64,000 nt of DNA. Source: Alphaproteobacteria bacterium. GTDB lineage: Bacteria; Pseudomonadota; Alphaproteobacteria; GCA-2731375. Where the stretch lies: NCBI GenBank assembly GCA_965225945.1, contig CBDDBZ010000038.1, positions 96,001 to 160,000 of the forward strand, read 5' to 3'. Below the pieces are notes generated by a model that saw nothing but the letters and a program-made list of their open reading frames with translations, searched no databases and had not been told where the DNA came from. Below are positions 592 through 53,929 of this stretch, one piece after another. Position 1 is the stretch's first letter, and every line of letters begins with the position of its first letter. The translations under genes and the position numbers were made by a program.

Positions 592-2019
592 CTACTCCTC
601 GACCTTCCAGCCCCAGTATTTGTTTCTGACCCGGCCGTAGTGGGTGGTGGGATCATAGGGGGTGACGGGGACCTCGAGGCGGGCGACGGAGAGCCGGCCG
701 ACGGCGGCGTGGAGGGTGAAGCCGGCGACGTATTCGTCGCGCTCGGCCTCGACCAGGCCGACCCGGGCGTCCAGCAGCTCCTGCTCGGCGTCGAGCACGT
801 CCAGCGTGGTGCGCGAGCCGACCGCGGCCTCCTGGCGCACGCCCTCCAGCGCGATCTCGTTGGCCCGGACCTCCTGCTGGCGGGCGGCGATGTTGGAGCG
901 CGCGGTGCCCAGGTTCTCCCAAGATTGCGTCACCGTCTCCACCGCCCGGCGCCGCGCCCGCTCGACCTCGATGCGGCGCTGGTTCCTCAGCTCCTTGGCC
1001 TGGCGCACCCGGGCATGCACCGCGCCGGCCTGATAGAGCGGCACCGTGACCCGCGCCAGGATCGAGATCGAGTGGGTGGTGACGTACTCCCGCGTGGTCT
1101 CGTGGCCGCCATCGACGGTGCCGTTCAACGTCGCGTTCGGCAGGATTTCGCCGAAGGCCACCTCGACCGCGTCGCGGGCCGCGTCCTCCTGGTGTCCGGC
1201 ACCCTCCAGGTCCGGGTTCTCGGCCAGCGTGATCGCCATCGCCTCTTCCAGCGAGGCCGGCAACGCGGGCAGCGGCGGGGCTCCCTCCAGATCCCCCGGC
1301 TGGCCGCCGATCACCTGCGCGTAGGTCGCGTCGGAGACCGCCAGGCTGCCCTCGGCGGAGATCCGCTCGGCGATCGTGCGCGCGAGCCGCGCCTCCGCCT
1401 GGGCGACGTCGGTGCGGGTCACCTCGCCGACGTCGAAGCGGTCCTGCGTCGCCTCCAACTGGCGACGCAGGACCCGCTCGTTGTTGAGGTTGAGCTCGAC
1501 CCGGGCGCGGTCGCGCAGCACGTCCATATAGGCGGTGACGGCGGCCAGCAGCACGCTTTGCTCGCGCGACCGTAGCCGGGACCGGCCGGCCAGCACCTGC
1601 TTCTCGGCCTGGGCCGTAGCGGCGATGGTGCGCCCGCCGCGATAGAGCGGCTGCACCACCGAGAGCCGGCCGTTCACCTGGCGCAGGTTCTGCCTCCGGC
1701 TCGCCGAGGTATCGGAGTACACGTAGCCGCCCGCGGCGTCGACCGACACCGTCGGCCGCCAACCGGCCAACGCTTGCGGCACCGTCTCGTCGACGCCGCG
1801 CAGCTCAGCCCGGGCGGCGCCGAGGTCGGGGTTTTCGAGATAGGCCCGGGCCAACGCGTCGCGCATCGTCTCCGCGCCCGCGGCCTGGGTCGTCTCCGCG
1901 CCCGCGGCCTGGGTCGTCTCCGCGCCCGCGGCCTGGGTCCAACTCGCGCCGACGATCGCCACGAGCGCCAACGCGCCTCGAAATCTGCTCATGCTTGCCC
2001 TCGCGAAATTCGCTGGCAC
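592..2019 (-). CDS. TolC family outer membrane protein
   Basis: Signal peptide, OEP repeats (RFDVGEVTRTDVAQAEAR, GSRTTLDVLDAEQEL); exact start uncertain. Confidence 0.92.
   Translation of the reverse strand: MPANFARASMSRFRGALALVAIVGASWTQAAGAETTQAAGAETTQAAGAETMRDALARAYLENPDLGAARAELRGVDETVPQALAGWRPTVSVDAAGGYVYSDTSASRRQNLRQVNGRLSVVQPLYRGGRTIAATAQAEKQVLAGRSRLRSREQSVLLAAVTAYMDVLRDRARVELNLNNERVLRRQLEATQDRFDVGEVTRTDVAQAEARLARTIAERISAEGSLAVSDATYAQVIGGQPGDLEGAPPLPALPASLEEAMAITLAENPDLEGAGHQEDAARDAVEVAFGEILPNATLNGTVDGGHETTREYVTTHSISILARVTVPLYQAGAVHARVRQAKELRNQRRIEVERARRRAVETVTQSWENLGTARSNIAARQQEVRANEIALEGVRQEAAVGSRTTLDVLDAEQELLDARVGLVEAERDEYVAGFTLHAAVGRLSVARLEVPVTPYDPTTHYGRVRNKYWGWKVEE
1866..1937. repeat. 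3 x 24-bp in-frame tandem repeat in the tolC 5' region
   Basis: tcgtctccgcgcccgcggcctggg x3, encoding TQAAGAET repeats. Confidence 0.9.
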
Positions 2020-2101
2020 CCCGGGGGGCGTCGAGCCGACCCTAGTTCAGCCCGACCACGCGGGCAAACCGATACCGATACGAACCCCTCGCCGGTCGTC
2101 C

Positions 2102-2815
2102 TCAGAACCGGAACGTCGCCGACGCCTCCAACCCCGGCAACACCGGGACCTGCGCGTCGAACAGTTCCGTATGGGAAACCACGCCGTCCCGGCGCCGGTA
2201 AAGCATGGCCCGGCCAACCTCGCCTTCGCGCGAAACCAGGACCATGCGGCCGCCCTCACTCAACTGTTCGACCAGCGCTTCGGGCGGGCGCGCGGTGGCG
2301 CCGTTGACGACGATGACGTCGTAGGGACCTTGCTCGGCGCAGCCTTCCTCCAGCGCGCCCTCGACCACGGCGGCGTTGTCGATGCCGACCTCGGCCAGCG
2401 CCCGGTTGGCCCAGCCGGCGAGCTCGCCGTCGCTTTCGAGGGCGACCACGGCGCTCGCCAGGCGAGCCAGCACGGCGGTCGAGTAGCCGCTGGCGCAGCC
2501 GACGTCGAGCACCGCGTCCTCCGGCCCGATCGCCGCCGCCTGCAGCAGCCGCGCCAGCACGACCGGCGCCAACAGACAGCGGCCGGGGGCCACCGGCATG
2601 TCTTCGTCGACATAGGCGACGGCCCGCATCGTCGATGGCACGAAGGGCTCGCGCGGTATCTCCAGGAACGCCTCCGCGATCCGCTCGTCGGTGACGTTGT
2701 TGGGCAGGATTTGCCCCTCGACCATGGCCTTGCGCCGGTTTCCGCTCGCTTCCAAGCGCCTCTCCTCCACCCCTCCGATCGTCGCGACGTTATAGGGCTC
2801 GGGCGGCCCGGACAC
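2102..2815 (-). CDS. pcm: Protein-L-isoaspartate O-methyltransferase
   Basis: RKAMVEGQILPNNVTD, IPREPFVP, VLDVGCASGYSTAVLARLA; start may be downstream. Confidence 0.9.
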   Translation of the reverse strand: MSGPPEPYNVATIGGVEERRLEASGNRRKAMVEGQILPNNVTDERIAEAFLEIPREPFVPSTMRAVAYVDEDMPVAPGRCLLAPVVLARLLQAAAIGPEDAVLDVGCASGYSTAVLARLASAVVALESDGELAGWANRALAEVGIDNAAVVEGALEEGCAEQGPYDVIVVNGATARPPEALVEQLSEGGRMVLVSREGEVGRAMLYRRRDGVVSHTELFDAQVPVLPGLEASATFRF

Positions 2816-2905
2816 AACGTCGGATGAGGCCGGACGGGACGCGTTGACCCGGCGCCCGGCAAGGATTAAGTAAACTCGGTCGCGGCCGCGGCGGGCCTGG
2901 GCACA

Positions 2906-2979
2906 GGCGCGGTGGGAGAGTGGTTATCCAGCGGACTGCAAATCCGTTTACACCGGTTCGAATCCGGTCCGCGCCTCCA
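2906..2979 (+). tRNA. tRNA-Cys(GCA)
   Basis: GGCGCGG acceptor stem, anticodon arm gcgga-ctGCAaa-tccgt, GGTTCGAATCC T arm, CCA end. Confidence 0.97.
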
Positions 2980-4021
2980 AATATTTCAATAACTTAGCGA
3001 AGATTTCGAGACGCCGCCGAGTTCGTGTCAATACCAGGTAACCATAGCTCCTGGATGACCGTTTCCCGGGCCAGGGAGGCGGCTGGACGGCGATGCCGGG
3101 CGTTCGGGTAGGGGTTTCCCGCCCCCGCCACGCTCGCGGCGCGTCCAGCTTTTGCGGGCGCCGTGAACCGCCTACGCTGGCGATGCGCGACGATAAGGGG
3201 ATCGCCATCTACCGTGTCGGCGCGCGGCCCCCGCCGCCGTCGGATTGCGAGGGAGCGGCGGTGGGGGCACCCGCCACGCTCACGGCGCGACGCGACTTCC
3301 GTGGGGTTCAACCGGGGGCTACACTTGACGGGCGCGACGACAATGGGAACGGATTGCCCCCACGTCGCGCGGCCCCCGCCGTAGGCTCCCCCATCCCGGC
3401 GGCGGGGGTTCTCGACGTCACCTCGATTCGCCTTCACCGAACCGCCGCCAGAGCCGCCCCGAGCGGTCCGGCCGGCCGATTGTCTTCGCCACCACCCGTC
3501 GCCGAGGATCGTGGATCGGCGATGTCCGGAATCGCACCATCGACCTCTGGTGTACCCCCAGGACTCCCCGTAATATTAGCAGGTGCTAACAGGAGAATAT
3601 TGACCCGTTCGAGACATTGGACAGGTTGGTATAGCAACTAATTGACGGCCTGCGACCGCCACCTCTACCACCGTGACGGCGGCCCATCGTGTAGCATCCA
3701 GATCGCCCGATAGGACAGGAGTGTGCTGCGCAGGTCGGAGTGCGCCCTCCCAGTGCAAAATGGTCACGGGTCCGAGTTGCTCATCGTCAAATCAGCTCGA
3801 CAAAGAGCGGGCCACGGCCTACCGTGTCAGCTCAGAGTCGGATTCGCGGTCGGATGCCCATCCTGTGATTGGGAGGAGCCATCTGGGGAATCCCGGTTTA
3901 GCGTCGAGAGCGTAGCATAGGGGGAAACTCATGCGGCGCCTGATGGCACATTTATTCATTGTCGGTCTGGTTGGCGGGTGCGTGAAATCCGATGTAGTTC
4001 GGTTGTTATCGTGAGAAAACG

Positions 4022-42390: not shown

Positions 42391-44487
42391 CTACTCGGGC
42401 GCCGTCAAGATCTGGACCCGGGCCTCGCTGCGCCGGCCGAGCGCGTCGATCAACACGAGCTCGGAAAATCCCGGACCGTCGACCCGCCACGCCGCCCGGC
42501 GAGCCCAGCGCGCGCTCGAGATCGGCCGGCCGTCCACCAGCCAGGTGAGCGGCCGCCGGCCGCCCTCGGCCTCGAGCGCGATTGCACCGTCGTCGCGGGG
42601 TCGAGGCAACACCGCCCGGTCGCGCGGATGGACGATCCGGGGCGGCGGGCCGGCGTGGACCCGGGCCGATCCGCGGCCACCGAGGCGGCGGAGCGCCGGG
42701 GGCAGGCCAGCGGCGGCCATGGCGCTGGCGCCCGGCGGGGGAATTGCCGCCGGCGCCGTGCTCGCCGGCAGTTGATCGAACACCCGGTACAGCAACGGCG
42801 CCGCGGTATTGACGCCGAAGTGGCCCGGCAACGGCGCGCCGTCGGGTCGGCCGACCCACACGCCGACCGTGTGATCGGCGGTGAAGCCGATCGCCCAGGC
42901 GTCACGGAACCCGTAGGAAGTGCCGGTCTTGTGGGCGATGCGTCGTCCCGCCGCGCGTCTTCCGCCGACGGCGTTCATGCTCCGGAGGATGCGGACGACC
43001 TGCCAGCGGGCGAGCGGGCGAAGTAGCGGCTCCCTCGCCGCCACGTTTCCCGGCGCGTCGGCGAGATGGCGCAGCGGGCGGACCCGCCCGTCGCTCGCCA
43101 GCGCGGCATAGAGCCGGACCAAATCCTCCAGCGTGATCCCGACCCCGCCGAGCGCCACCGCCAGACCCGGCCGCGCGTCGGGGGCGCCGAGGGCCAGGGC
43201 GATGCCTTCGCGCCGCAGCCGTTCGACGAAGGCGACCGGGCCCAACCTGTCGAGCAGCGCCACCGCCGGCACGTTCAGCGACAGGCGCAGGGCCTCCGCC
43301 AGGCTGATCTCGCCATAATGCCGGTCCATGAAGTTGGCCGGCGCGTAGTCGCCGAACTGGGTTGGCGCGTCCTCGACGATCGTCGCGGGGTGGGCGAGGC
43401 CGCGATCGAAGGCGAGGCCATAGATGATCGGCTTCAGGGTGGAACCCGGGGAGCGGACGGCGCGGGCGAAATCGACCCGGCCGTGACGCGTCGCATCGTG
43501 GAAGTCGGCGCTTCCGACGTGGGCCCGAACCGCGCGGCCAGCGTTGGCGACGACCAGAATCGCCACGTTGCCCGCCTGACCCACCTCGCGTGCCCAATCG
43601 CGGTCCATGGTTTGCAAGCGGCGCTGCAACACCGCGTCGAGGGTGGCGCGCACGACCGTGCCGTCGGGCGTGCCGGCACGCAGGCGATCGGCGAGATGGG
43701 GTGCCAGGAAGGCGGTCCGGCGGCGCGAGCGGCCCACCGGCTCGCGACGGGCCAAGGCGATCTCCGCCTTGGCGTAGCCCGCCCGCTCAGCCACCCGTGC
43801 CAACACCAGGTCCCGAACCGTTCGCGCCGCCGCCGGCGCGCGGTCGGGGCGGAGCCGGCCGGGCGCCCTCGGCAGGGCCACCAGCAAGGCCGCCTCGCCG
43901 GCCGTCAGCGCCTTCGGCTCGCGCCCGAAGTAGGCGCGCGAGGCCGCGCGCACGCCTTCCAGATTGCCGCCGAAGGGGGCGAGCGTCAGATACATGTCGA
44001 GGATCTCGTCCTTGGTGTGCCGCCGCTCGAGCTGGAGGGCGCGGAACATCTCGACCAGCTTGGCAGCCAGGCCGCGCGGACGCGGTCCCAGCAAGCGCGC
44101 CGTCTGCATGGTAAGGGTGGAGGCGCCGGAGACGATCCGGCCCGCCACCACGGCCTGTCCCGCCGCCCGCGCCAAAGCCAGCGGATCGACGCCCGGGTGA
44201 TCCCGGAAGCGCTTGTCCTCGAAGGCGATCAGCATCCGGATGTAGCGCGGATCGACCTCGCCGGCCCGGGTCGGCAGGCGAGCCATCCCGTCCGCGCTCA
44301 GATAGGACCGCAGCAGCCGGCCCTCCCGGTCGACGACCTCGGTCGAGAGGCGTTCGAGGCGGGAGAGGTCGGGCAGATAAACCGAATCGAGCAGCCGAAA
44401 GCCACCGAGCGCCAGGAGGCCGATCGCCGCCACCGCCAGGCCCGAGGCCGAGAGCCGGCCTCGGGAACTTTTGAGTCCGACTCTCAA
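42391..44487 (-). CDS. pbpC: Penicillin-binding protein 1C
   Basis: FEDKRF, SGASTLTMQ, SPGSTLKP, KTGTSYGFRDAW; TTG start overlaps the A2M stop. Confidence 0.93.
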   Translation of the reverse strand: MRVGLKSSRGRLSASGLAVAAIGLLALGGFRLLDSVYLPDLSRLERLSTEVVDREGRLLRSYLSADGMARLPTRAGEVDPRYIRMLIAFEDKRFRDHPGVDPLALARAAGQAVVAGRIVSGASTLTMQTARLLGPRPRGLAAKLVEMFRALQLERRHTKDEILDMYLTLAPFGGNLEGVRAASRAYFGREPKALTAGEAALLVALPRAPGRLRPDRAPAAARTVRDLVLARVAERAGYAKAEIALARREPVGRSRRRTAFLAPHLADRLRAGTPDGTVVRATLDAVLQRRLQTMDRDWAREVGQAGNVAILVVANAGRAVRAHVGSADFHDATRHGRVDFARAVRSPGSTLKPIIYGLAFDRGLAHPATIVEDAPTQFGDYAPANFMDRHYGEISLAEALRLSLNVPAVALLDRLGPVAFVERLRREGIALALGAPDARPGLAVALGGVGITLEDLVRLYAALASDGRVRPLRHLADAPGNVAAREPLLRPLARWQVVRILRSMNAVGGRRAAGRRIAHKTGTSYGFRDAWAIGFTADHTVGVWVGRPDGAPLPGHFGVNTAAPLLYRVFDQLPASTAPAAIPPPGASAMAAAGLPPALRRLGGRGSARVHAGPPPRIVHPRDRAVLPRPRDDGAIALEAEGGRRPLTWLVDGRPISSARWARRAAWRVDGPGFSELVLIDALGRRSEARVQILTAPE

Positions 44488-45848
44488 CGCGTGATCTCCA
44501 GCCACCCCGTCGGCCCGCGCGCGTGATAGCGCGGCTTGTACATGTCCTCGACGAAACTGCCGGGGTTGACGAAGCGGCCCGGCGTCACCGCGCGGGCGAC
44601 ATAGGCGACGGCGAAGCGGCGGCGATTGCCCCGGATGTCGAGCGCCGCGACATAGCGGTCGTCCCGCGCCGCCTCGAAGGCGGTGCGGCTCAACGGCGGC
44701 AGGAAGGTGAAGCCTCGTTTTTGGGTGCCGCCGAGGGCCGCGTTCTCGATCTCGAGCCCCGCCGGCAATAGGTCGACGACCAGCACCTCCCGCTCGCCGG
44801 ATGCCTTCGCCTCGCCCTCGACCAGCACCACCAGCCGATCGTTCCGCCGGATGCTCGCCGGGTCGACCTCGCCGCCGTCGAGGCTGAAATAGCGCCGCAG
44901 AATTGTGAAGCCGTTCTCGACCGCCTCGGGCGGCGTCGAGGGCACGCCGCGCCGGCTCTCGATGACCCGCACCGGATGGTCGCTCCGGTTCCGGATCGCC
45001 ACGCCTTCGGCGTCGTCGACCGCGAGGCGCACGCGGATCGGCTTGCCGGGGGAGCTCCGGGGCGTGCCGTCGATGGCGACGTCGAGCGCGCCGACGGCGT
45101 CGGTGAAGGCGTTCGTCGCCAACAGCAGCCAAGCCTGCTCCTGGGTGGAGAACCAGCGGCGCTGGTCGAATTGGCTCTCGATCAGCTCGGCCACCCGTTG
45201 ACGCCGCGCCGGCGTCGTCGAGAGCTCGGCCAGCAACGTCGCCAGCGCCGCGCCGTCGCGAAGGTCGGAGCCATAGTCTCGGATCGCCAACCCCTTCGGC
45301 CTTCGCTGGCGGAGTGCCGCGGCGAACAACGGCTCGGCCCGCGCCGCCTCGCCCAGGATGGTGAGCGCGCCCGCCACATGACCTAGCGCCAACCGTGTCT
45401 GCAGCCGCGCCGTGTAGTTGTCGGCGAAGTAGCGCGCCTCGCTCGCCTTCACCGCGCCGACGCGGGCGAGCGTGTAGAGGGCGTAGGCCCGGGCATGGAG
45501 CCCGCTGTTTGAGCGCCGCGCGTTGTAGCGGACCAGCCAGTTCTTGGCATGGTCGTAAGCCGCCGCCGGCACCGTGTGGCCGCGCTCTCGCGCCCGGGTC
45601 AGAAAGTCGAAGGCATAGGCGGTGAGCCAGGCATGGGAAACGCCGAAGGATTGCCAGACGGCGAAGGCACCGTCGGCGCGCTGGCGATCGAGCACGCGGG
45701 TGATGGCGCGGTCGATCCGGCGCTGCTGCGCCAAGCGGCCGGGCGCCACGCCCCAACTCGTCTGCAGGCCCGCCGCCACCAGGGTCGGGAGCGCGCGGGA
45801 AATCGTCTGTTCCGTGCAGCCGTAGGGATAGTCCCGCAGGCTCGCCAA
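44484..45848 (-). pseudogene. C-terminal part of bacterial alpha-2-macroglobulin (3' exon of the group II intron; 5' part absent from the window)
   Basis: Thioester motif YPYGCTEQ, STQEQAW, VDLLPAGLEIEN, VEDMYKP; directly upstream of pbpC. Confidence 0.9.
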
Positions 45849-46076
45849 GTTACGGTAGGAATGCGCATTGCTGCGCACCCCCCGCGGTTACGGTAGGAAT
45901 GCGCATTGCTGCGCACCCCCCGCGGTTACGGTAGGAATGCGCATTGCTGCGCACCCCCCGCAGTTACGGTAGGAATGCGCATTGCTGCGCACCCCCCGCG
46001 GTTACGGTAGGAATGCGCATTGCTGCGCACCCCCCGCGGTTACGGTAGGAATGCGCATTGCTGCGCACCCCCCGCG
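45849..46076 (-). repeat. 6 x 38-bp tandem array of group II intron domain VI + 3' splice site
   Basis: Minus-strand unit CGCGGGGGGTGCGCAGCAATGCGCATTCCTACCGTAAC; units start at 45849, 45887, 45925, 45963, 46001, 46039; one SNP at 45962; no spacers. Confidence 0.95.
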
Positions 46077-47957
46077 CAGATCCGGACGTGGTCGTTGAAC
46101 CATCCGGCTCCTACCTCGGGTGCTTGACGGCAAACCGCTGGTCCGGCCATGGGTGGCGGATGGAGGCGCGTGGCCACAGGATTTCGGTCATGCGCTCCAG
46201 TCGCTTCCAACTAAATCGGGCTCGCTGGGACCGGCGGCGTAGCGCCCGCATCCACCGGCGTTGCAGCCTGCGGAGGAACGCACGGATGAACCGGCCTGAC
46301 CCTGGGACGGCAAAGTAGTTGAGCCAGCCATTGCAGACTCGCCCCAGCCACCTACCAACTTCCCAGATGTCGTGGTGCCAGCGCTTGCGGAGCACCTCGT
46401 CGATGCGCGCCAGGGTCCTGTTGACCCGTTTGGCGACCGGTTTGCGACCAAGCCGAAAGCGTCCTCTCAGGGTCGTCGTGCAATAGTGCGTGAGGCCCAG
46501 AAAGTCGAAAGTCTCCGGCTTGCCCACCCCGCGCTGGCGCCGGTTCAAATCCGCGAACCGGCCAAACTCCACGAGGCGGGTCTTGTCCTGGTGGAGGCTG
46601 AGACCGAACCGGGCCAGCCTCTCCCGAACGTCGCGGAGGTACCGCTCCGCATCCCGCTTGTGTTGGAACCCGACAACGATATCGTCAGCGTAACGGACGA
46701 TGATCGCTTCGCCATCCGGGACGTTCGGGCGCCATTTCTTGTGGAACCACAAGTCGAGCACGTAATGCAGGAACACGTTCGCCAAGACGGGGGAGACTAT
46801 TGCCCCCTGCGGCGTGCCCATACCCGTATCTGCCCATGACCCACTCTCTATGACGCCGGCGTTCAGCCATTTCCAGATCAGACGGATGACCCGCCTGTCT
46901 CCGATGCGGTGCTCTAGGAACCTGATCAACCAATCCCGCGGGATCGTGTCGAAGTACGCCCGGAGGTCTGCATCGACTATCCAGCTGACCTTGCGCCGTT
47001 TTATCCCGAAGGCCAGGGCATCGAGCGCATCGTGCGCCCCCCGCCCCGGTCGGAACCCGTAGCTGAAGCCAAGAAACACCACCTCGTAGATCGGTGTCAG
47101 GATCACATCCACAACCGCCTTCTGGACGACCTTGTCCTCCAGCGCCGCGATCCCGAGCGGTCGTGTCCCCCCGTCCGGCTTGGGTATCTCTACCCGCCGA
47201 ACCGGCGGCGCCCGGTACGCTCCCCCTCTGTGCAGGCGCCGGTGCAGGTCGAGCAGGCGCTCATCCAGACCCTCGCCGTACATGTCCCACGTAACGCCGT
47301 CGACACCGGCTGCTGCGTCCTTCTTCAATGCGAAGTAGGCCGCACCGAGCGCGTCCGGCGTAATGTGGTGGAAGAGCGCAGTGAGACCTTCCTTCGGGTT
47401 TCTCTCTGCAGCTTTCCGTATCCGGGCCGCCGCCTGTGGCACGCTTACCCGACACTGGGTTCGGCGCGTGCTTTGGCAATCCGGATTCCCCTTGGTTGAG
47501 GCCCTTTCCTCCGGCGACTCCGCAGAAGCTCGCGCTCCCTTGTTCGCCGCCCTCACAGGTCGTATGGCCTCATCCGACTTCTTCAAACCGTTCATCATAG
47601 GCTTCGGTTTTCTCCATTCCCTACGCGGCCCCTTTACGACAACCGGGGCAGTTTGAAGACCTCCCAGGGTCCCAACAGAAGGCGTGCGAACGTGCATGGG
47701 TTCTCTGACACCGCGGGGCTCGCCGACATCTCACCAAAACGACGCCTGCGATATTGCCTTCGACCGATCTGAAAGCCTCGGCACCCCGGACCATCGCTTT
47801 TACGGTGCTCAATAGCCCTGCCCATCCATGCCGCTACCGACGCTTCGCCTGCCCCCTCACGGGAGCCAACGCACGGCTCGCGGAGAAACGTGGTTCGGTT
47901 ACTCCTTCGTTCCGGGGGACTTGCACCCCCTACCTTCTGCCAGTTCGCCTGGCGCAC
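46039..47957 (-). mobile_element. Complete group II intron (inner copy, 1919 nt; IIB-like, no endonuclease domain)
   Basis: 5' end GTGCGCCAGG at 47957; DV GAGCCGGATG..GTCCGGATC at 46110-46079; DVI with bulged A and AAC end. Confidence 0.95.
46111..47598 (-). CDS. ltrA: Group II intron reverse transcriptase/maturase
   Basis: AAGVDG, IPKPDG.TRPLGI, GTPQGAIVSPVLAN, RYADD, FDFLG, X domain; no HNH. Confidence 0.96.
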   Translation of the reverse strand: MMNGLKKSDEAIRPVRAANKGARASAESPEERASTKGNPDCQSTRRTQCRVSVPQAAARIRKAAERNPKEGLTALFHHITPDALGAAYFALKKDAAAGVDGVTWDMYGEGLDERLLDLHRRLHRGGAYRAPPVRRVEIPKPDGGTRPLGIAALEDKVVQKAVVDVILTPIYEVVFLGFSYGFRPGRGAHDALDALAFGIKRRKVSWIVDADLRAYFDTIPRDWLIRFLEHRIGDRRVIRLIWKWLNAGVIESGSWADTGMGTPQGAIVSPVLANVFLHYVLDLWFHKKWRPNVPDGEAIIVRYADDIVVGFQHKRDAERYLRDVRERLARFGLSLHQDKTRLVEFGRFADLNRRQRGVGKPETFDFLGLTHYCTTTLRGRFRLGRKPVAKRVNRTLARIDEVLRKRWHHDIWEVGRWLGRVCNGWLNYFAVPGSGRFIRAFLRRLQRRWMRALRRRSQRARFSWKRLERMTEILWPRASIRHPWPDQRFAVKHPR

Positions 47958-48783
47958 CAGATCCGGACGTGGTCGTTGAACCATCCGGCTCCTACCTCGG
48001 GTGCTTGACGGCAAACCGCTGGTCCGGCCATGGGTGGCGGATGGAGGCGCGTGGCCACAGGATTTCGGTCATGCGCTCCAGTCGCTTCCAACTAAATCGG
48101 GCTCGCTGGGACCGGCGGCGTAGCGCCCGCATCCACCGGCGTTGCAGCCTGCGGAGGAACGCACGGATGAACCGGCCTGACCCTGGGACGGCAAAGTAGT
48201 TGAGCCAGCCATTGCAGACTCGCCCCAGCCACCTACCAACTTCCCAGATGTCGTGGTGCCAGCGCTTGCGGAGCACCTCGTCGATGCGCGCCAGGGTCCT
48301 GTTGACCCGTTTGGCGACCGGTTTGCGACCAAGCCGAAAGCGTCCTCTCAGGGTCGTCGTGCAATAGTGCGTGAGGCCCAGAAAGTCGAAAGTCTCCGGC
48401 TTGCCCACCCCGCGCTGGCGCCGGTTCAAATCCGCGAACCGGCCAAACTCCACGAGGCGGGTCTTGTCCTGGTGGAGGCTGAGACCGAACCGGGCCAGCC
48501 TCTCCCGAACGTCGCGGAGGTACCGCTCCGCATCCCGCTTGTGTTGGAACCCGACAACGATATCGTCAGCGTAACGGACGATGATCGCTTCGCCATCCGG
48601 GACGTTCGGGCGCCATTTCTTGTGGAACCACAAGTCGAGCACGTAATGCAGGAACACGTTCGCCAAGACGGGGGAGACTATTGCCCCCTGCGGCGTGCCC
48701 ATACCCGTATCTGCCCATGACCCACTCTCTATGACGCCTGAGTCGGACCCGATTTCCTTGGACACAGAATTGGTTTAATCGAA

Positions 48784-49215
48784 GTGTCCAAGGAGGACCG
48801 GAACATGACCGACAATTTTGAGAACAAAGTTGCTGTTGATGGGCCTGTGGTAAACGAGGGCGAGCTTGGCTCGTCCACGTTTTCCCCGGGCCAGGTTTCG
48901 CCGGCAGGCCCGCTGGGACTTGGCCAGCGGTGGACGGTGACGCGCAAGCGTGAGGTTGCCCTGCGGCTTTTGCGTGGCGAGCCGGTGGAACTTTTGTCGC
49001 GGCAGTTGGGCGTGGAGATTTTCCGGCTCGAGCAGTGGCGTGAGAAGGCGATCGCCGGGATCGATGCCTCGCTCAAGGAACGCAAGGGCGATCCGGTAAA
49101 GGCGGAACTGGACATCGCCATGAAGCGGATCGGGGAGTTGATCATGCAGGTGGAACTGCTGGAGGCCAAGACGGAGACGTCCGGCCCTTTGGGGCGGCGG
49201 AGGTCGCGGCGATGA
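48784..49215 (+). CDS. IS OrfA (HTH)
   Basis: RWTVTRKREVALRLLRGE...SRQLGV; ATGA overlap with OrfB; start uncertain. Confidence 0.8.
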   Translation: MSKEDRNMTDNFENKVAVDGPVVNEGELGSSTFSPGQVSPAGPLGLGQRWTVTRKREVALRLLRGEPVELLSRQLGVEIFRLEQWREKAIAGIDASLKERKGDPVKAELDIAMKRIGELIMQVELLEAKTETSGPLGRRRSRR

Positions 49216-50123
49216 GTGCCGCCACCTCTCCCGGCACGGGTTTGGCCTACGGCCTCCAGCGGGTCTGTGCGGCCTGGGGTTTTGCCCGTTCCTCGTTCTA
49301 CGCCATGAAATCCCGGCAGCAGGCCACCGCTGAGCGCCCACCAGCAAAGCGCCGGGGACCGAAGCCCTCGATCTCGGACGAGGCTCTGCTGGTGGCCATC
49401 GAGGCCGACCTGGAGGCATCCCCCTGGGAGGGCGAGGGACACCGCAAGGTCTGGGCTCGGCTTCGGGTCTGTCGTGGCATCCGTGTTTCCCGCAAGCGGG
49501 TGCTCCGGGTGATGCGCGAGAACAACCTGCTCTCGCCCCATCGCTGCCGCCGCCGTGGCGGAAATCCCCATGTCGGTGAGATCATCACCCATGCCCCCAA
49601 CCTCATGTGGGGCACGGACGGCGTTCGGGTGTTCACGGTGGACGACGGCTGGGGCTGGATATTCACCGCCATCGAGCATTGGAACGCCGAGTGCGTCGGC
49701 TGGCATGTGTGCAAGCGAGGCGACCGCTTCGCCGCCCTTCAGCCAATCTCCATGGGGCTTGCGAGGCTGTATGCCTCGACCTCCGCCGGTGCGGCGCGGG
49801 GGCTGGCCTTGCGGATGGATCACGGCTCCCAGTATCTGTCGGACCACTTCACCAACCAGATCAAGTTCTGGGGCATCCAGCCGTCCTACGCCTTCGTCGA
49901 ACAGCCCCAGACCAACGGCGTCGCCGAGAGGTTCAATCGCACGCTCAAGGAACAGATCATCCATGGCCGCATCTACCGCAACATCGCGGAGCTGCGGAAC
50001 GCCGTCCGCGGGTTCGTCGAACAGTACAATGCCCAGTGGATCGTGGAGAAGAACGGCTACCTGAGCCCCGCTCAAGCTCGTCAGGCGTGGCACACCGCGA
50101 TGTCACTCAGGCCCGCCGCATGA
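49212..50123 (+). CDS. IS OrfB DDE integrase-core transposase
   Basis: WGTD, RMDHGSQY, NGVAERFNRTLKE. Confidence 0.92.
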   Translation: MSAATSPGTGLAYGLQRVCAAWGFARSSFYAMKSRQQATAERPPAKRRGPKPSISDEALLVAIEADLEASPWEGEGHRKVWARLRVCRGIRVSRKRVLRVMRENNLLSPHRCRRRGGNPHVGEIITHAPNLMWGTDGVRVFTVDDGWGWIFTAIEHWNAECVGWHVCKRGDRFAALQPISMGLARLYASTSAGAARGLALRMDHGSQYLSDHFTNQIKFWGIQPSYAFVEQPQTNGVAERFNRTLKEQIIHGRIYRNIAELRNAVRGFVEQYNAQWIVEKNGYLSPAQARQAWHTAMSLRPAA

Positions 50124-50452
50124 GACAAACTTGTGTCCAAGGAACCGGGTGCGATACACTCTCTATGACGCCGGCGTTCAGCCATTTCCAGATCAGACGG
50201 ATGACCCGCCTGTCTCCGATGCGGTGCTCTAGGAACGTGATCAACCAATCCCGCGGGATCGTGTCGAAGTACGCCCGGAGGTCTGCATCGACTATCCAGC
50301 TGACCTTGCGCCGTTCTATCCCGAAGGCCAGGGCATCGAGCGCATCGTGCGCCCCCCGCCCCGGTCGGAACCCGTAGCTGAAGCCAAGAAACACCACCTC
50401 GTAGATCGGTGTCAGGATCACATCCACAACCGCCTTCTGGACGACCTTGTCC

Positions 50453-51499
50453 GATTGAGCAACCTGATGTGTGGAAATTCGGAACGCCGTTGATCAGTCA
50501 TCCTCTGCTTTCCAAGTGATGTAGGGTTTTTCGGTGGTTTCCCATTTCTCGTCGATTTCGACGAGGATGGCGGTGACCAGACGTTCGAGCGAGGCCTCGT
50601 TGGGAAAGACCCTGACCTTTACGGTGCGGCGCTTGATCTCCTGCTGGATGGATCGCTCCATGGGGTTCGAGGTTCGCATGCGCTTTTGGTGGCGCTCGGG
50701 CAGGGCGAAGACGGCGAGGCCCTCGGGGATCGCCGTCTCCAGCCAATCGGCGAGCTTGGGGGCGCTGTCGCGGTAGGCCGCCACCAGATGGCCCAGCTCG
50801 GCCTCGGCGGCCTTGCCGTCGGCGGCGTTCCAGACCCGGCGCAGCTCCTTGCCGATGGCCTTTCGGATGGCGAGGTTGGGGGCGTGATGGATGGCGTTTT
50901 GAGCCAGATGGTACTGACAGCGCTGCCAGACGGCGCCGCCGAGGACGGCCTTGCGCGCGGCGCCGAGGCCTGGATGATCATCGGAAACGATATAGGCGAC
51001 ACCGCGCATGCCACCGGCAACCAGGGTCTCCAGGAAGGCGCGCCAGTGCACTTCGGCCTCGGAGAGCGCACAGGAAACACCGAGCACCCGGCGGCGCTGG
51101 TCGGGGCCGATGCCGATCACCGAGAGCACGGCGGCGTCGCGCACCACGCCACCCTCTCGGACTTTCTCATAGCGCGCGTCGAGGAGCAGGTAGCGGATCT
51201 CGCCCAGCGGCCGGTTGCGCCAGGCATCCAGCTCCCCATCCAAGAGCTTGGCGGCGCGGCTGACCTGGCTCGACGACAGGCTCTCCAGGCCGAACTCGCG
51301 CATCACCGCCTCGGCGTCACGGGTGGAGACGCCTTTGATATACATCTCCGCCACGGCCAGCATGACAGCGCGGCAGGAGCGCCGTCCGCGCTCCAGGGCT
51401 TGGGGGTAAAAAGGCGCCTCATGACCGGCGGTCTTGGGAACCTCGAGCCTCACCGTACCGGCCGGGGTGTCGATCTTCTTGGGTCTGGTGCCGTTGGCG
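50453..51499 (-). mobile_element. IS256 family element, 5'-truncated by IS21
   Basis: EMYIKGVSTRD, LDARYEKVR, SDDHPGL, WQRCQYH, RTSNPMER; ORF ends at 50494. Confidence 0.92.
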
Positions 51500-51702: not shown

Positions 51703-52431
51703 TTAGGACCGATTCTTGAAGCGCCAGGAGTCGTTTCCGGTCTCGATGATCTCGCAGTGGTGCGTCAGACGATCGAGGAGCGCGGTGGTCATCTTGGCGT
51801 CGCCGAAGACGGACGGCCATTCGCCGAAGGTCAGGTTGGTGGTGACGATGATCGAGGTGCGCTCGTAGAGCCGGCTGACGAGGTGGAACAGCAGCTGGCC
51901 TCCGGTTTGGGCGAAGGGCAGGTAGCCGAGCTCGTCGAGGATGACGAGGTCGCGCCGGGCCAGCTGATCGGCGAGCCGGCCCTGGCGGCCGGCGCGGGCT
52001 TCGGCCTCGAGCCGGTTGACCAGGTCGACGACGTTGAAGAAGCGGCCCCGGGCGCCATCGCGGATGCAGGCCCGCGCGATGGCGACGGCGAGATGGCTCT
52101 TGCCGGTGCCGGTGCCGCCGATCAGCACGGCGTTGCGCTGGTTGGCCAGGAAGCCGCCGACCGCCAACTCGCGGACCAGCGGCTCGTTGACCGGGGTGTC
52201 GGTGAAGTCGAAGTCGGCCAGCTCCTTGGCCAGCGGCAGCTTGGCGCCACTCATCTGGTACTTGATGGATCGCGCCTGCTTGTCGGCGATCTCGGCCTTC
52301 AACAGCTCGCCGATGATTCGCTGCATCGGATGCTGGCGCTTGAGGCCGTCGGCGAGCACCTCGTCGAACGCGTCGCGCATGCCGGCGAGCTTGAGTGCGG
52401 CCATCATCTCCAGGACCTCATGGCGCTCCAT
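51703..52431 (-). CDS. istB: IS21 helper ATPase IstB
   Basis: Identical translation to 7263-7991. Confidence 0.95.
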
Positions 52432-53929
52432 GGCCGACCCCCCTCAAGCGGTCGTAGCGGGTGCAATCGGCCACCGGCTCAAAGCGAAGACGCAGGTTCG
52501 CGGGCGTCGGGATCGGCGCCGTCTCGGACGGCTGGCGCCGACGATTGAGGATGTTGAGCACGACGTCGGCGCTGCACACGCCGCCAGCGAGCGCCTCGGC
52601 ACAGGCGGCCTCCACCGCCGCCAGCCCATCCGCCAGCACGGCGGTGAGGATCTCGACCATCTGCCTGTCGCCGTCGTCGTGGCCGGCGAGCCGGACGCGC
52701 ACGCGACCCAGGGCGCCGGGCAGCGCCCAGTCCTTGAACGGCGCGCCGTTACGAAGCGCACCGGGCTTCCTCGCCAGCACGGGCACGTAGTGCCACGGGT
52801 CATAGACGGTCTGGTCGCGGCCGAAGCGCCGGGCATGCTCGGCGACGATCTCGCCGTCCTGGCGGATGACGATGCGATCGGCGTAGGCATGGACCTCGAC
52901 CGGACGGCCGACGGCGCGCGCCGCCACGCTGTACTTGTTGCTGTCGAAGCGCACCAGGCAGGTCTTCGACACCGACGCCGGGACCGCGTGGAAGCCGTCG
53001 AACGGCCCGCGATAGCCGACCAGGGACGGACGCTCGTCCTCGAACACCTGCCAGACAGTCCTGTCCTTGAACACCGGGTGGGGATGACGCCGGGCGTAGG
53101 CGACGCACTGGTCCAAGAGCCAGGCGTTGAGCTCGTCGTAGGTCTTGAAGCGCAGCCGCGGGGTGAAGAACCGACCGCGGATGATCCCGACCTGGTTCTC
53201 GACCTGCCCCTTCTCCCATCCCGCTCCCGGCGTGCATGCTGTCGGTTCGACCAGGTAGTGGCCACACATCTGCACGAAGCGCCGGTTGAACGCGCGCTCC
53301 TTGCCGATGAGGACGGTCTGCACCGCCGTCTTCATGTTGTCGTAGATGCCTCGCCGGCAGGCACCCTGGAACAGCCGGAATGCCCGGTCGTGGGCGTCGA
53401 ACACCATCTCCTGGCTCTCGCGCGGATAAGCGCGGACGAAGAACATTCGGCTGTGGCACAGCCGGACGTGCGCGACCTTGACCTTGGTCGTCACCCCCGC
53501 CAGCACCACGTACTCGTGGCTCCAGTCGAACTGATAGGCCTCGCCCGGCGAGAACACCAACGGCACATAGGTCTGCGCCGTCGATGCCGAACGGCGCCAC
53601 CGCCACGCCTTGGCGTAGCGCCGCACCGCGTCGTAGCCGCCGCCATAGCCCAGACCCTCGAGGGCTTCGGAGATCCGTAGCAGCGTCAGCCGCTCCCGCT
53701 TCGACTTGGTCTCGTTGGCCTCCAGCATCCGCTCCAGCTCGGCCGTCCACGGCCCCAGCTTCGGCATCGGCTGGACCCGCCGGTCGTAGGTGAACGCCGT
53801 CGCCTGCGAACGGATCACCTTGCGCACCGTGTTGCCCGAGACCTTCACGTCCCGCACGATCTCCTTGATCGGCTTCCCCTTGACAAAATACTCCCGCCGG
53901 ATCCGCGCTATCGTCTCCACGACCAACAT
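52418..53929 (-). CDS. istA: IS21 transposase IstA
   Basis: Identical translation to 5765-7276. Confidence 0.95.

Follow-up and report, generated by a model that had tools for sequence, protein, structure and literature searches.

Why should a group II intron be found lodged inside the 3' end of another copy of itself? The question is raised by a stretch of 64,000 nucleotides (nt), here called the window, from a sponge-associated Alphaproteobacteria bacterium (lineage GCA-2731375; assembly GCA_965225945.1, contig CBDDBZ010000038.1, positions 96,001-160,000 of the forward strand). In the region 45849-50452 of the window, read on the minus strand, a copy of an intron that we call intron A is interrupted between its domain V (DV) and domain VI (DVI) by a second A-type copy. 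We regard it as probable that intron A uses the DV/DVI junctions of other group II introns, as well as those of its own copies, as homing sites, and in doing so builds nested arrays. The evidence comes from the window, from the genome to which the window belongs (G000, 39 contigs, with labels such as C38) and from 78 loci of relatives (labelled L) that were fetched with the reverse transcriptase (RT) protein of the intron as query.

The junction itself can be read directly. On the minus strand the outer copy runs to the end of its DV (..GAGCCGGATGGTTCAACGACCACGTCCGGATC, 47991-47960) and through a TG linker (47959-47958), and at 47957 the sequence passes at once into GTGCGCC.., the 5' end of a complete inner copy, exactly as the initial annotation had described. 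The boundaries are unambiguous because the intron body (GUGCG..GGAUCUG) and the DVI unit (CGCGGGG..GUAAC) have no terminal bases in common. The inner body (46077-47957, minus strand; 1,881 nt) comprises the 5' GUGCG, domains I-V and the UG linker, and at 47923-47699(-) it matches the full Rfam model RF02005 (group-II-D1D4-6; model positions 1-225) with 163.7 bits (gathering score 49). Its termini are those expected of a group II intron (5' GUGYG, 3' AY): GUGCG begins at 47957, every DVI unit closes with ..GUAAC, and the same GUGCG/GUAAC pair recurs at single-copy insertions.

Domain IV of the inner copy encodes an RT/maturase of 494 amino acids (46111-47595, minus strand), recognised by Pfam RVT_1 (3.2e-37, 128.7 bits) and NCBIfam TIGR04416 (345.2 bits, cut-off 300). 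Its maturase domain, GIIM, scores 21.6 bits, slightly below the 23-bit cut-off of Pfam, and no endonuclease domain is detected in the protein by Pfam or NCBIfam. The only annotation that it attracts is 'group II intron RT/maturase' (NCBIfam, plasmid tblastn), the best cultured relatives being 55-57% identical. Near-identical copies of the intron stand at 40 or more sites, and contigs of it are present in RNA libraries. Judging by this indirect evidence, intron A appears to be active; in type it is a bacterial group II intron without an endonuclease, Rfam D1D4-6.

The inner DV (46079-46110, minus strand), followed by UG and DVI, is the sole intact and unoccupied target in the window array. When 46114-46039 is folded (-38.2 kcal/mol, z = -4.58), DV forms a hairpin with a 2-nt CG bulge, and DVI forms a helix with a bulged UA, the A lying 8 nt from the 3' end. 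The Rfam DV/DVI model RF00029 stays below its gathering score in the window; in the AGC triad of DV, as read off the sequence, the G is opposite A, not U. The initial annotation had placed the displaced DVI of the outer copy beyond the inner 3' end. The position is right, but not the number, since there are six tandem 38-nt DVI units (CGCGGGGGG..CCUACCGUAAC) at 46076-45849 on the minus strand, not one. Each of these ends in ..AAC, the fourth starts with U (T) instead of C, and Tandem Repeats Finder describes them as 6.0 copies of period 38 with 98% matches. A complete intron within a host intron, in the order host DV, intron A, host DVI, is the arrangement of a twintron, and it is found for self hosts and for the host introns that we call B-type and C-type.

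What directs the intron to this point? Exon-binding site 1 (EBS1) can be considered first. The sequence CAGAUC (47771-47766, minus strand) occupies the loop of a hairpin, GGCU-UUCAGAUC-GGUC, and is exactly complementary to GAUCUG (47963-47958), which serves as intron-binding site 1 (IBS1); this site is 6 nt long and lies partly within the 3' strand of the DV hairpin. The assignment of the loop as EBS1, proposed from the sequence of this one locus, is borne out by the structure line of the Rfam alignment and by covariation with the last six bases of the 5' exon in at least 10 related lineages. The loop/exon pairs are UACGAU/AUCGUA, CCAAUG/CAUUGG, UGUCAU/AUGACA, UGAAUU/AAUUCA, AUCAGC/GCUGGU, ACCAGC/GUUGGU, CGAGUU/AACUUG, AUGUAC/GUAUAU, GGUAUC/GGUACC and, at locus L102, CAGACC/GGUCUG, in which the change in EBS1 is compensatory. 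As DV is a hairpin, group II introns of class C were also considered; these insert just after a terminator-like stem-loop, with a short IBS1 only and no EBS2.

EBS3 is the A at body position 252 (47706, minus strand), in a column that is complementary to exon position +1 in 10 of 11 lineages, the eleventh being an A-type copy at an atypical site. At the A-type 3' flanks, +1 is T in 19 of 26 cases, and introns with U at +1 suit this EBS3 better than the self site does. The standing of EBS2 is less settled. The candidate, GGAUG (47827-47823, minus strand), forms five of five pairs with CGUCC (47969-47965), one of them G-U, and L102, with a different sequence at these columns, retains in-register pairing to the target that it occupies; to this extent the earlier proposal is supported. 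The behaviour of the candidate elsewhere speaks against it. In relatives its columns are near-constant regardless of the exon, and a covariation search of aligned columns against exon positions -8 to -14 in 11 lineages found no general pattern. Across 7 genomes we read 42 different 5' flanks for the A-type copies: 33 ordinary non-intron sites and 9 DV ends of group II introns. At least four of the five pairs with GGAUG form at 8 of the 33 non-intron sites, compared with 838 of 8,685 background sites, and at 8 of the 9 intron hosts, which are homologous and hence not independent. The non-intron sites have C at -10 in 23 of 33 cases, which would mismatch GGAUG, and G at -11 in 21 of 33.

Could the junction be a product of assembly? 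Head-to-head bodies and DVI repeats might in principle be mis-joins of a high-copy repeat, and two features of the data fit that idea: the arrays on contigs C31, C38 and C35 reach contig ends, and in three of the four public sequencing runs examined (X1, X2 and X15) the contigs end at 47958-47965, their loose ends being DVI or other 5' exons. Such breaks are expected, however, because the junction is a branching repeat. In the fourth run, X16, an RNA library, an independent 864-nt contig over 47746-48400 bridges the junction with 0 differences. The copies within arrays have substitutions of their own, and intron A stands after the DV of another intron, with the host DVI behind it, in several other assemblies, some of them at chromosome level. 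An artefact is therefore extremely improbable. The A-into-A junction occurs eight times in G000, more than chance would give, and with the X16 contig this establishes the nested self-insertion, precisely between DV and DVI, that had been proposed from the window. In public data, at least half of the sampled words of the stretch are present in 20 of 24 listed runs, from 8 studies; among these 20, runs X2, X4, X15 and X18 are labelled sponge metagenome. JGI metagenome contigs gave 0 hits both for the self-junction pattern and for a general 5'-junction pattern of intron A, a result that is uninformative on spread.

The strongest evidence for targeting is the occupancy of sites within this one genome. 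In G000 there are 18 A-type DVs: the 5' end of another A copy comes next in 8 cases, and DVI in 10. Three DVs of other introns end in G[AG]UCUG, and intron A is present at all of them. Altogether it occupies 11 of the 21 intron junctions that match, compared with 7 at most of the 8,685 (~8,700) other G[AG]TCTG sites; the figure of 7 combines 3 identified non-intron sites with a maximum of 4 arrays that have lost the 5' exon. The 8 self junctions lie at 5 loci, with outer flanks that differ where they are known.

The arrays vary in their make-up. The largest, C38:556143-562657, has three full bodies and a partial one at the contig end, with four DVI units; C31:260176-265560 has two full bodies and a partial one, again at the contig end, its DVI units not being seen. 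Two bodies are followed by one DVI unit on C37, whereas C33 has one full body and a partial one with five DVI units, plus fragments. A single body stands before three DVI units at C34:400136, where the host intron's own DVI then follows, and a 5'-truncated body before three DVI units on C39. On C35 two DVI units are seen at a contig end. Three single insertions have one body and one DVI unit each.

Is the target the intron's own core, as the initial annotation supposed, or something broader? The self DV/DVI junction is indeed a target, but that description proves too narrow. One of the nine intron DVs is that of intron A itself; the rest are variants of a related B-type DV (four) or of a C-type DV (four; ..CGCUCGGGUCUG), and the host's own DVI stands behind that of intron A wherever the sequence is readable. 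The insertion point 2 nt past DV thus recurs in 9 host flanks from 7 genomes and, with L102, in 8 genomes, drawn from the Alphaproteobacteria, a Gammaproteobacterium and the Thermodesulfobacteriota; a 3' flank resembling a host DVI, as judged by eye, is present at five more loci in five further genomes. Homologs of the RT are thus indeed located after the DV of other group II introns. C-type junctions with a matching IBS1 (in G000, G001, G002 and G004) are occupied in four cases and empty in one. Sites of the B1-like form, CGGGATCTG followed by NGCGGGG, are rare: the pattern CGG-R-ATCTG, which cannot match the CCGGATCTG junction of intron A, gave 1 hit (G004).

Of the 11 lineage representatives for which a 3' end was found, 10 have GGAUCUG and then NGCGGGGGG where DV meets DVI; the exception is L064, with GGAACUG. 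The true homing site thus appears to be the GAUCUG that closes DV in group II introns generally, a sequence conserved across the class because DV is the catalytic core. Self-insertion is a by-product of aiming at group II DV ends, and it has gone further in G000. The near-identical element is found in both Alpha- and Gammaproteobacteria, a relative with 74% RT identity occurs in the Thermodesulfobacteriota, and the runs and records concerned are all labelled as sponge or marine metagenome bins; this points to recent horizontal spread within one habitat. Three relatives differ from the class-wide GAUCUG, the DV ends of L042, L064 and L102 being GAACUG or GAAUUG. Since L042 (EBS1 CAGAUC) and L102 (CAGACC) carry an EBS1 of the matching type, the changed DV ends would protect them against self-insertion; the EBS1 of L064 is different.

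Several observations weigh against repeated homing of intron A into intron junctions. At the self target IBS1 is perfect and the pairing with GGAUG is the best of all, but the C at +1 is a mismatch to the A of EBS3. The intron is promiscuous, with 33 of its 42 sites being ordinary ones that have little in common beyond the 6-nt IBS1, and the enrichment at introns could in part reflect the survival of harmless insertions. The host introns in G000 are fragments. Numbers of bodies and DVI units depart from those of pure nesting, as on C37, with 2 bodies and 1 DVI unit, and in the window, with 6 DVI units and fewer than 2 bodies, and other processes are needed to account for them. Public-run support consists of contigs only, three of the four sets lacking a bridge across the junction. 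Finally, self-nesting is seen in G000 only: the self-junction pattern (at most 1 mismatch) does not occur in G001 (29 full copies), G002, G004 or G007 (same genus, 12 matches), and its single match in G003 is the DV of a different host intron. Similarly, arrays of two or more DVI units are confined to G000 among the loci examined. Differences in domain I between G000 and G001 (positions 18 and 208 and, in one copy, 242) were considered as a cause of this restriction and rejected, none of them lying at EBS1, the EBS2 candidate or EBS3.

Do the arrays, then, record repeated homing at all? One or a few self-insertions may have been followed by the ordinary dynamics of tandem repeats, that is, by unequal crossing-over, slippage of DVI units, and movement of a composite array or ectopic recombination, with no repeated preferential self-homing. 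This is a real possibility, although we consider it short of probable. It would accommodate the uncoupled counts (2/1 on C37, 1/3 on both C34 and C39, and one body plus a partial one with 6 DVI units in the window), the absence of self-nesting from the five other A-bearing genomes searched, and the four variants common to the three full copies in the array at C38:556143. Of the same character is a jumbled patchwork behind the five DVI units of C33 (304300-304670, minus strand), made up of partial DVI pieces and of 5'-end pieces of another intron, B2. The inner copies of the window and C33 arrays, moreover, are 1 base apart, with the same end of an IS256-family element upstream of both. Against it stand the 8 self junctions, distributed over 5 loci with different outer flanks where known, and the substitutions carried by individual array copies, those of C31 differing among themselves. 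The C38 array fits pure nesting, having four DVI units for four bodies, of which the outermost breaks off where the contig stops. Even on this account, the first event still requires reverse splicing at the exact site.

A second alternative is that the pattern reflects survivorship and not targeting, with insertion occurring at any G(A/G)UCUG, harmless sites in introns persisting and those in genes being purged. The non-intron sites have IBS1 alone in common (at -6 to -1, G in 32/33, A or G in 25 and 7, U in 32/33, C in 30/33, U in 33/33 and G in 33/33), several host introns are dead fragments, and in G001, which has 29 full copies, the flanks that were read include just one hosted by an intron, L131. 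All this is what survivorship would lead one to expect. We nevertheless consider it unlikely, as the gap between 11 of 21 and at most 7 of some 8,700 sites in one genome is far beyond the share of neutral DNA. Insertions at the junction are seen, besides, in 8 genomes that span three phyla or classes, and one lineage has a variant EBS1 and candidate EBS2 with changes that match the C-type DV. The excess of GGAUG pairing at intron hosts over the background argues in the same direction, subject to the homology of those hosts.

How would homing at the DV/DVI junction produce the arrays? The ribonucleoprotein would reverse-splice into DNA where EBS1, CAGAUC, can pair with 5'-G(A/G)UCUG-3', EBS3 (A) pairing with T at +1 and GGAUG possibly assisting through an upstream CGUCC. 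In a group II intron the GAUCUG would be provided by the last four bases of the DV helix and the UG linker to DVI. Each self-insertion would place a new body between host DV and host DVI, with the bodies stacking head to head at a spacing of 1,881 nt and the DVI units accumulating behind them at a spacing of 38 nt. As only the innermost copy keeps an intact junction, the array would always offer one fresh target. The initial annotation had seen in this a fresh target with each insertion. One new junction does arise each time, but the host junction is destroyed, so that the site is renewed, not multiplied.

The numbers of bodies and DVI units could become uncoupled by recombination between the 1.9-kb bodies, by slippage in steps of 38 nt, or by 5'-truncated insertions that are resolved by homology. 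We infer such causes for the surplus DVI units, as we do reverse splicing into DNA rather than RNA and the use of the replication fork; that endonuclease-less group II introns use replication-fork primers is established (PMC4424553). Splicing would probably be sequential, inner copy first, because the inner IBS1 and the candidate IBS2 are the 3' strand of the outer DV.

A broader hypothesis can be offered only tentatively, and we think it more doubtful than not. A-like introns may be specialised hyperparasites of group II introns, with an ancestral home at the DV-J5/6 junction that hosts cannot change without loss of catalysis. Escape would then be through small changes adjacent to the core, for which the C at +1 in the DVI of intron A and the GAACUG or GAAUUG of L042, L064 and L102 are candidates. 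Weak self-immunity would lead to runaway arrays, and the displaced DVI units could act as alternative 3' splice sites.

How does this compare with known systems? In the chloroplast twintrons of Euglena, inner introns can interrupt domain V. The Euglena twintrons resemble the present case in that removal of the inner intron precedes folding of the outer ribozyme (PMC4424553), but they are degenerate organellar introns, without evidence, in the accessible text, of a dedicated and recurrent DV/DVI homing site. The suggestion that a self-renewing homing site had not been described is not upheld. In Methanosarcina acetivorans group II introns home into group II introns and are nested up to five deep, copies being lost by homologous recombination, and the term 'perpetual homing site' has been applied to them (PMC4424553, PMC2882425); self-insertion has likewise been published for lycophyte mitochondria (PMC7049729). 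The principle itself has been published before, and what the window holds is a decayed relic.

The likeness to M. acetivorans extends to site-specific intron-into-intron homing, nesting and loss by recombination. There, however, the sites are in the open reading frames (ORFs) of related introns (Dai and Zimmerly 2003, as its title indicates), whereas intron A inserts in the ribozyme core, 2 nt past DV; it enters its own copies, and the displaced DVI units pile up as a 38-nt tandem array. In Thermosynechococcus elongatus, insertion of TeI3 into TeI4, at a conserved site of another intron, has been viewed as a proliferation strategy (PMC2882425). That site differs in that it belongs to domain IV, where it separates the first two ATGs of the ORF, and the inner intron, from a different family, has no ORF; self arrays are not reported in the accessible account. 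The lycophyte mitochondrial intron cox1i1149g2 is a group II intron inserted into its own copy (Zumkeller et al. 2020, PMC7049729), but it represents a single organellar event at position 652, with a non-splicing inner copy (a 'zombie' twintron), weaker EBS-IBS pairing and, as far as the accessible text goes, no arrays.

Two further systems bear on the repeated units. The E. coli groEL intron undergoes head-to-tail tandem integration, a second copy entering at the 5' exon/intron boundary where the U of EBS3 forms a wobble pair with G1 (PMC12584367, 2025). As with intron A, a second copy comes to lie beside a resident one where pairing rules happen to permit it; the products there are whole-intron tandems, whereas intron A lands inside the intron and gives nested bodies and separate DVI repeats. 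The tandem form described in PMC12584367 is also seen in a relative of intron A, L046 (OZ253557.1, ~1900-3820), with a 70% identical RT, in which a second copy follows head to tail (..CCGUAAC followed directly by GAAUGUCAGG..); this lineage lies mostly in the start of an IS6-like transposase gene. Clostridium tetani C.te.I1 has four DV/VI repeats and alternative splicing (PMC4424553), and shares with the window repeated 3' domains behind one body, each offering a 3' splice site. Its repeats include DV and are separated by ORFs, whereas those in the window are DVI only, back to back, and give no sign of function.

A literature search found no bacterial lineage with recurrent homing to the DV/DVI junction, no self-nesting arrays of an active bacterial intron and no tandem DVI arrays; subscription papers and supplements were mostly outside its reach, and an earlier description, for example in the notes of the Zimmerly intron database, may exist. 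In annotation, nested arrays of this kind escape those pipelines that discard loci with more than one intron copy (PMC4028801, PMC8919778).

Why does such a site matter? Intron A is a retroelement whose landing site, the end of the catalytic domain V, is the part that elements of its kind conserve most strongly. For the element this would be a safe haven: hard to mutate away, removed by splicing together with the host, and available in any genome that has group II introns. The arrays also provide a natural system for the origin and resolution of twintrons and for the limits on intron copy number, where self-insertion is set against recombination. With the same element at 33 ordinary sites, they lend themselves to asking how far 6-11 nt of RNA-DNA pairing reaches in the choice of target, and they bear on the origin of repeated 3' domains like those reported to serve alternative splicing in C. 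tetani.

The outer copy in the window is far from intact, being represented by its 3' part only. One piece (47958-48738, minus strand) corresponds to body positions 1101-1881 and is identical to the inner copy over 781 nt by BLAST; it contains the DV (47991-47960), IBS1 (GAUCUG, 47963-47958) and the IBS2 candidate (CGUCC, 47969-47965). A second piece (50159-50452, minus strand) covers body positions 821 to about 1114, the 5' 820 nt being missing, and is 99.3% identical over 296 nt, with body positions 821-1116 mapping to 50452-50157 and 2 substitutions in the 296 nt. It is thus true, as was first noted, that the copies differ by substitutions, but the statement rests on only 2 differences in 1,077 shared nt.

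Two insertion sequences (ISs) are responsible for this state. An IS3/IS481-like element (48739-50158, plus strand), with ends TG..CA and with matches to Pfam rve/HTH_21 and NCBIfam IS3 (156 bits, cut-off 160), lies within the RT gene of the outer copy. It is flanked by a 14-bp target duplication, GGCGTCATAGAGAG, at 48725-48738 and 50159-50172, and a direct duplication of 14 bp is found at both of the insertions of this kind that were compared (the window and locus L020, 8832-10229). A duplication of 14 bp is long for the IS3 family. The outer copy is truncated at 50452/50453 by the end of an IS256-family element (50453-51453, minus strand), whose transposase ORF spans 50494-51453 (Pfam Transposase_mut 1.1e-74; NCBIfam IS256 265.9 bits). 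An identical IS256-family end, in the same orientation, abuts two A copies, at body position 821 in the window and at 845 in G000 C33:307775, both of which are without the 5' part of the intron; this suggests a rearrangement mediated by the IS or by the array, or a duplication. Just past this element is an IS21-like pair (51703-53929, minus strand), with Mu-transposase C and rve domains and an adjacent ORF.

On the other side of the array, the 3' exon is the C-terminal part of an alpha-2-macroglobulin gene (44484-45848, minus strand; ..LASLRDYPYGCTEQ..), recognised by Pfam TED_complement and bMG10, with a translation that includes ..YPYGCTEQ... The gene is interrupted 12 codons before the CTEQ thioester motif. 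A search just upstream did not find its 5' part; the IS21-like element lies there instead. The window array is thus a wreck, its outer copy cut by two insertion sequences and its host gene minus its 5' part. Over 42391-45878 (minus strand) the macroglobulin fragment has behind it a gene of PBP1C type, with Transgly, Transpeptidase and BiPBP_C domains, and the two presumably represent the usual bacterial macroglobulin-PbpC pair.

Among the remaining observations, an ORF-less intron, B2, is present on C24 of G000 (locus L018, ~7000-6300, minus strand), with an RF02005 score of 168.9 bits. It is inserted 6 nt deeper, in the DVI of the same host intron (..UGCGGG/GUGCGCC.., the slash marking the insertion point), and has an EBS1-like loop, CCCGU, that can pair with GCGGG; another lineage therefore also seems to target the 3' domains of group II introns. 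Intron A occupies an identical site in the orfA of an IS3-family element (..GCCGAGGGUCUG, with UAUUAC.. beyond the intron) in two genomes, at G000 C20:121843 and at L033 (CBDHDN010000078.1), and may travel with that IS. A tRNA gene (65.2 bits) lies near the start of the window, at 2906-2976 on the plus strand.

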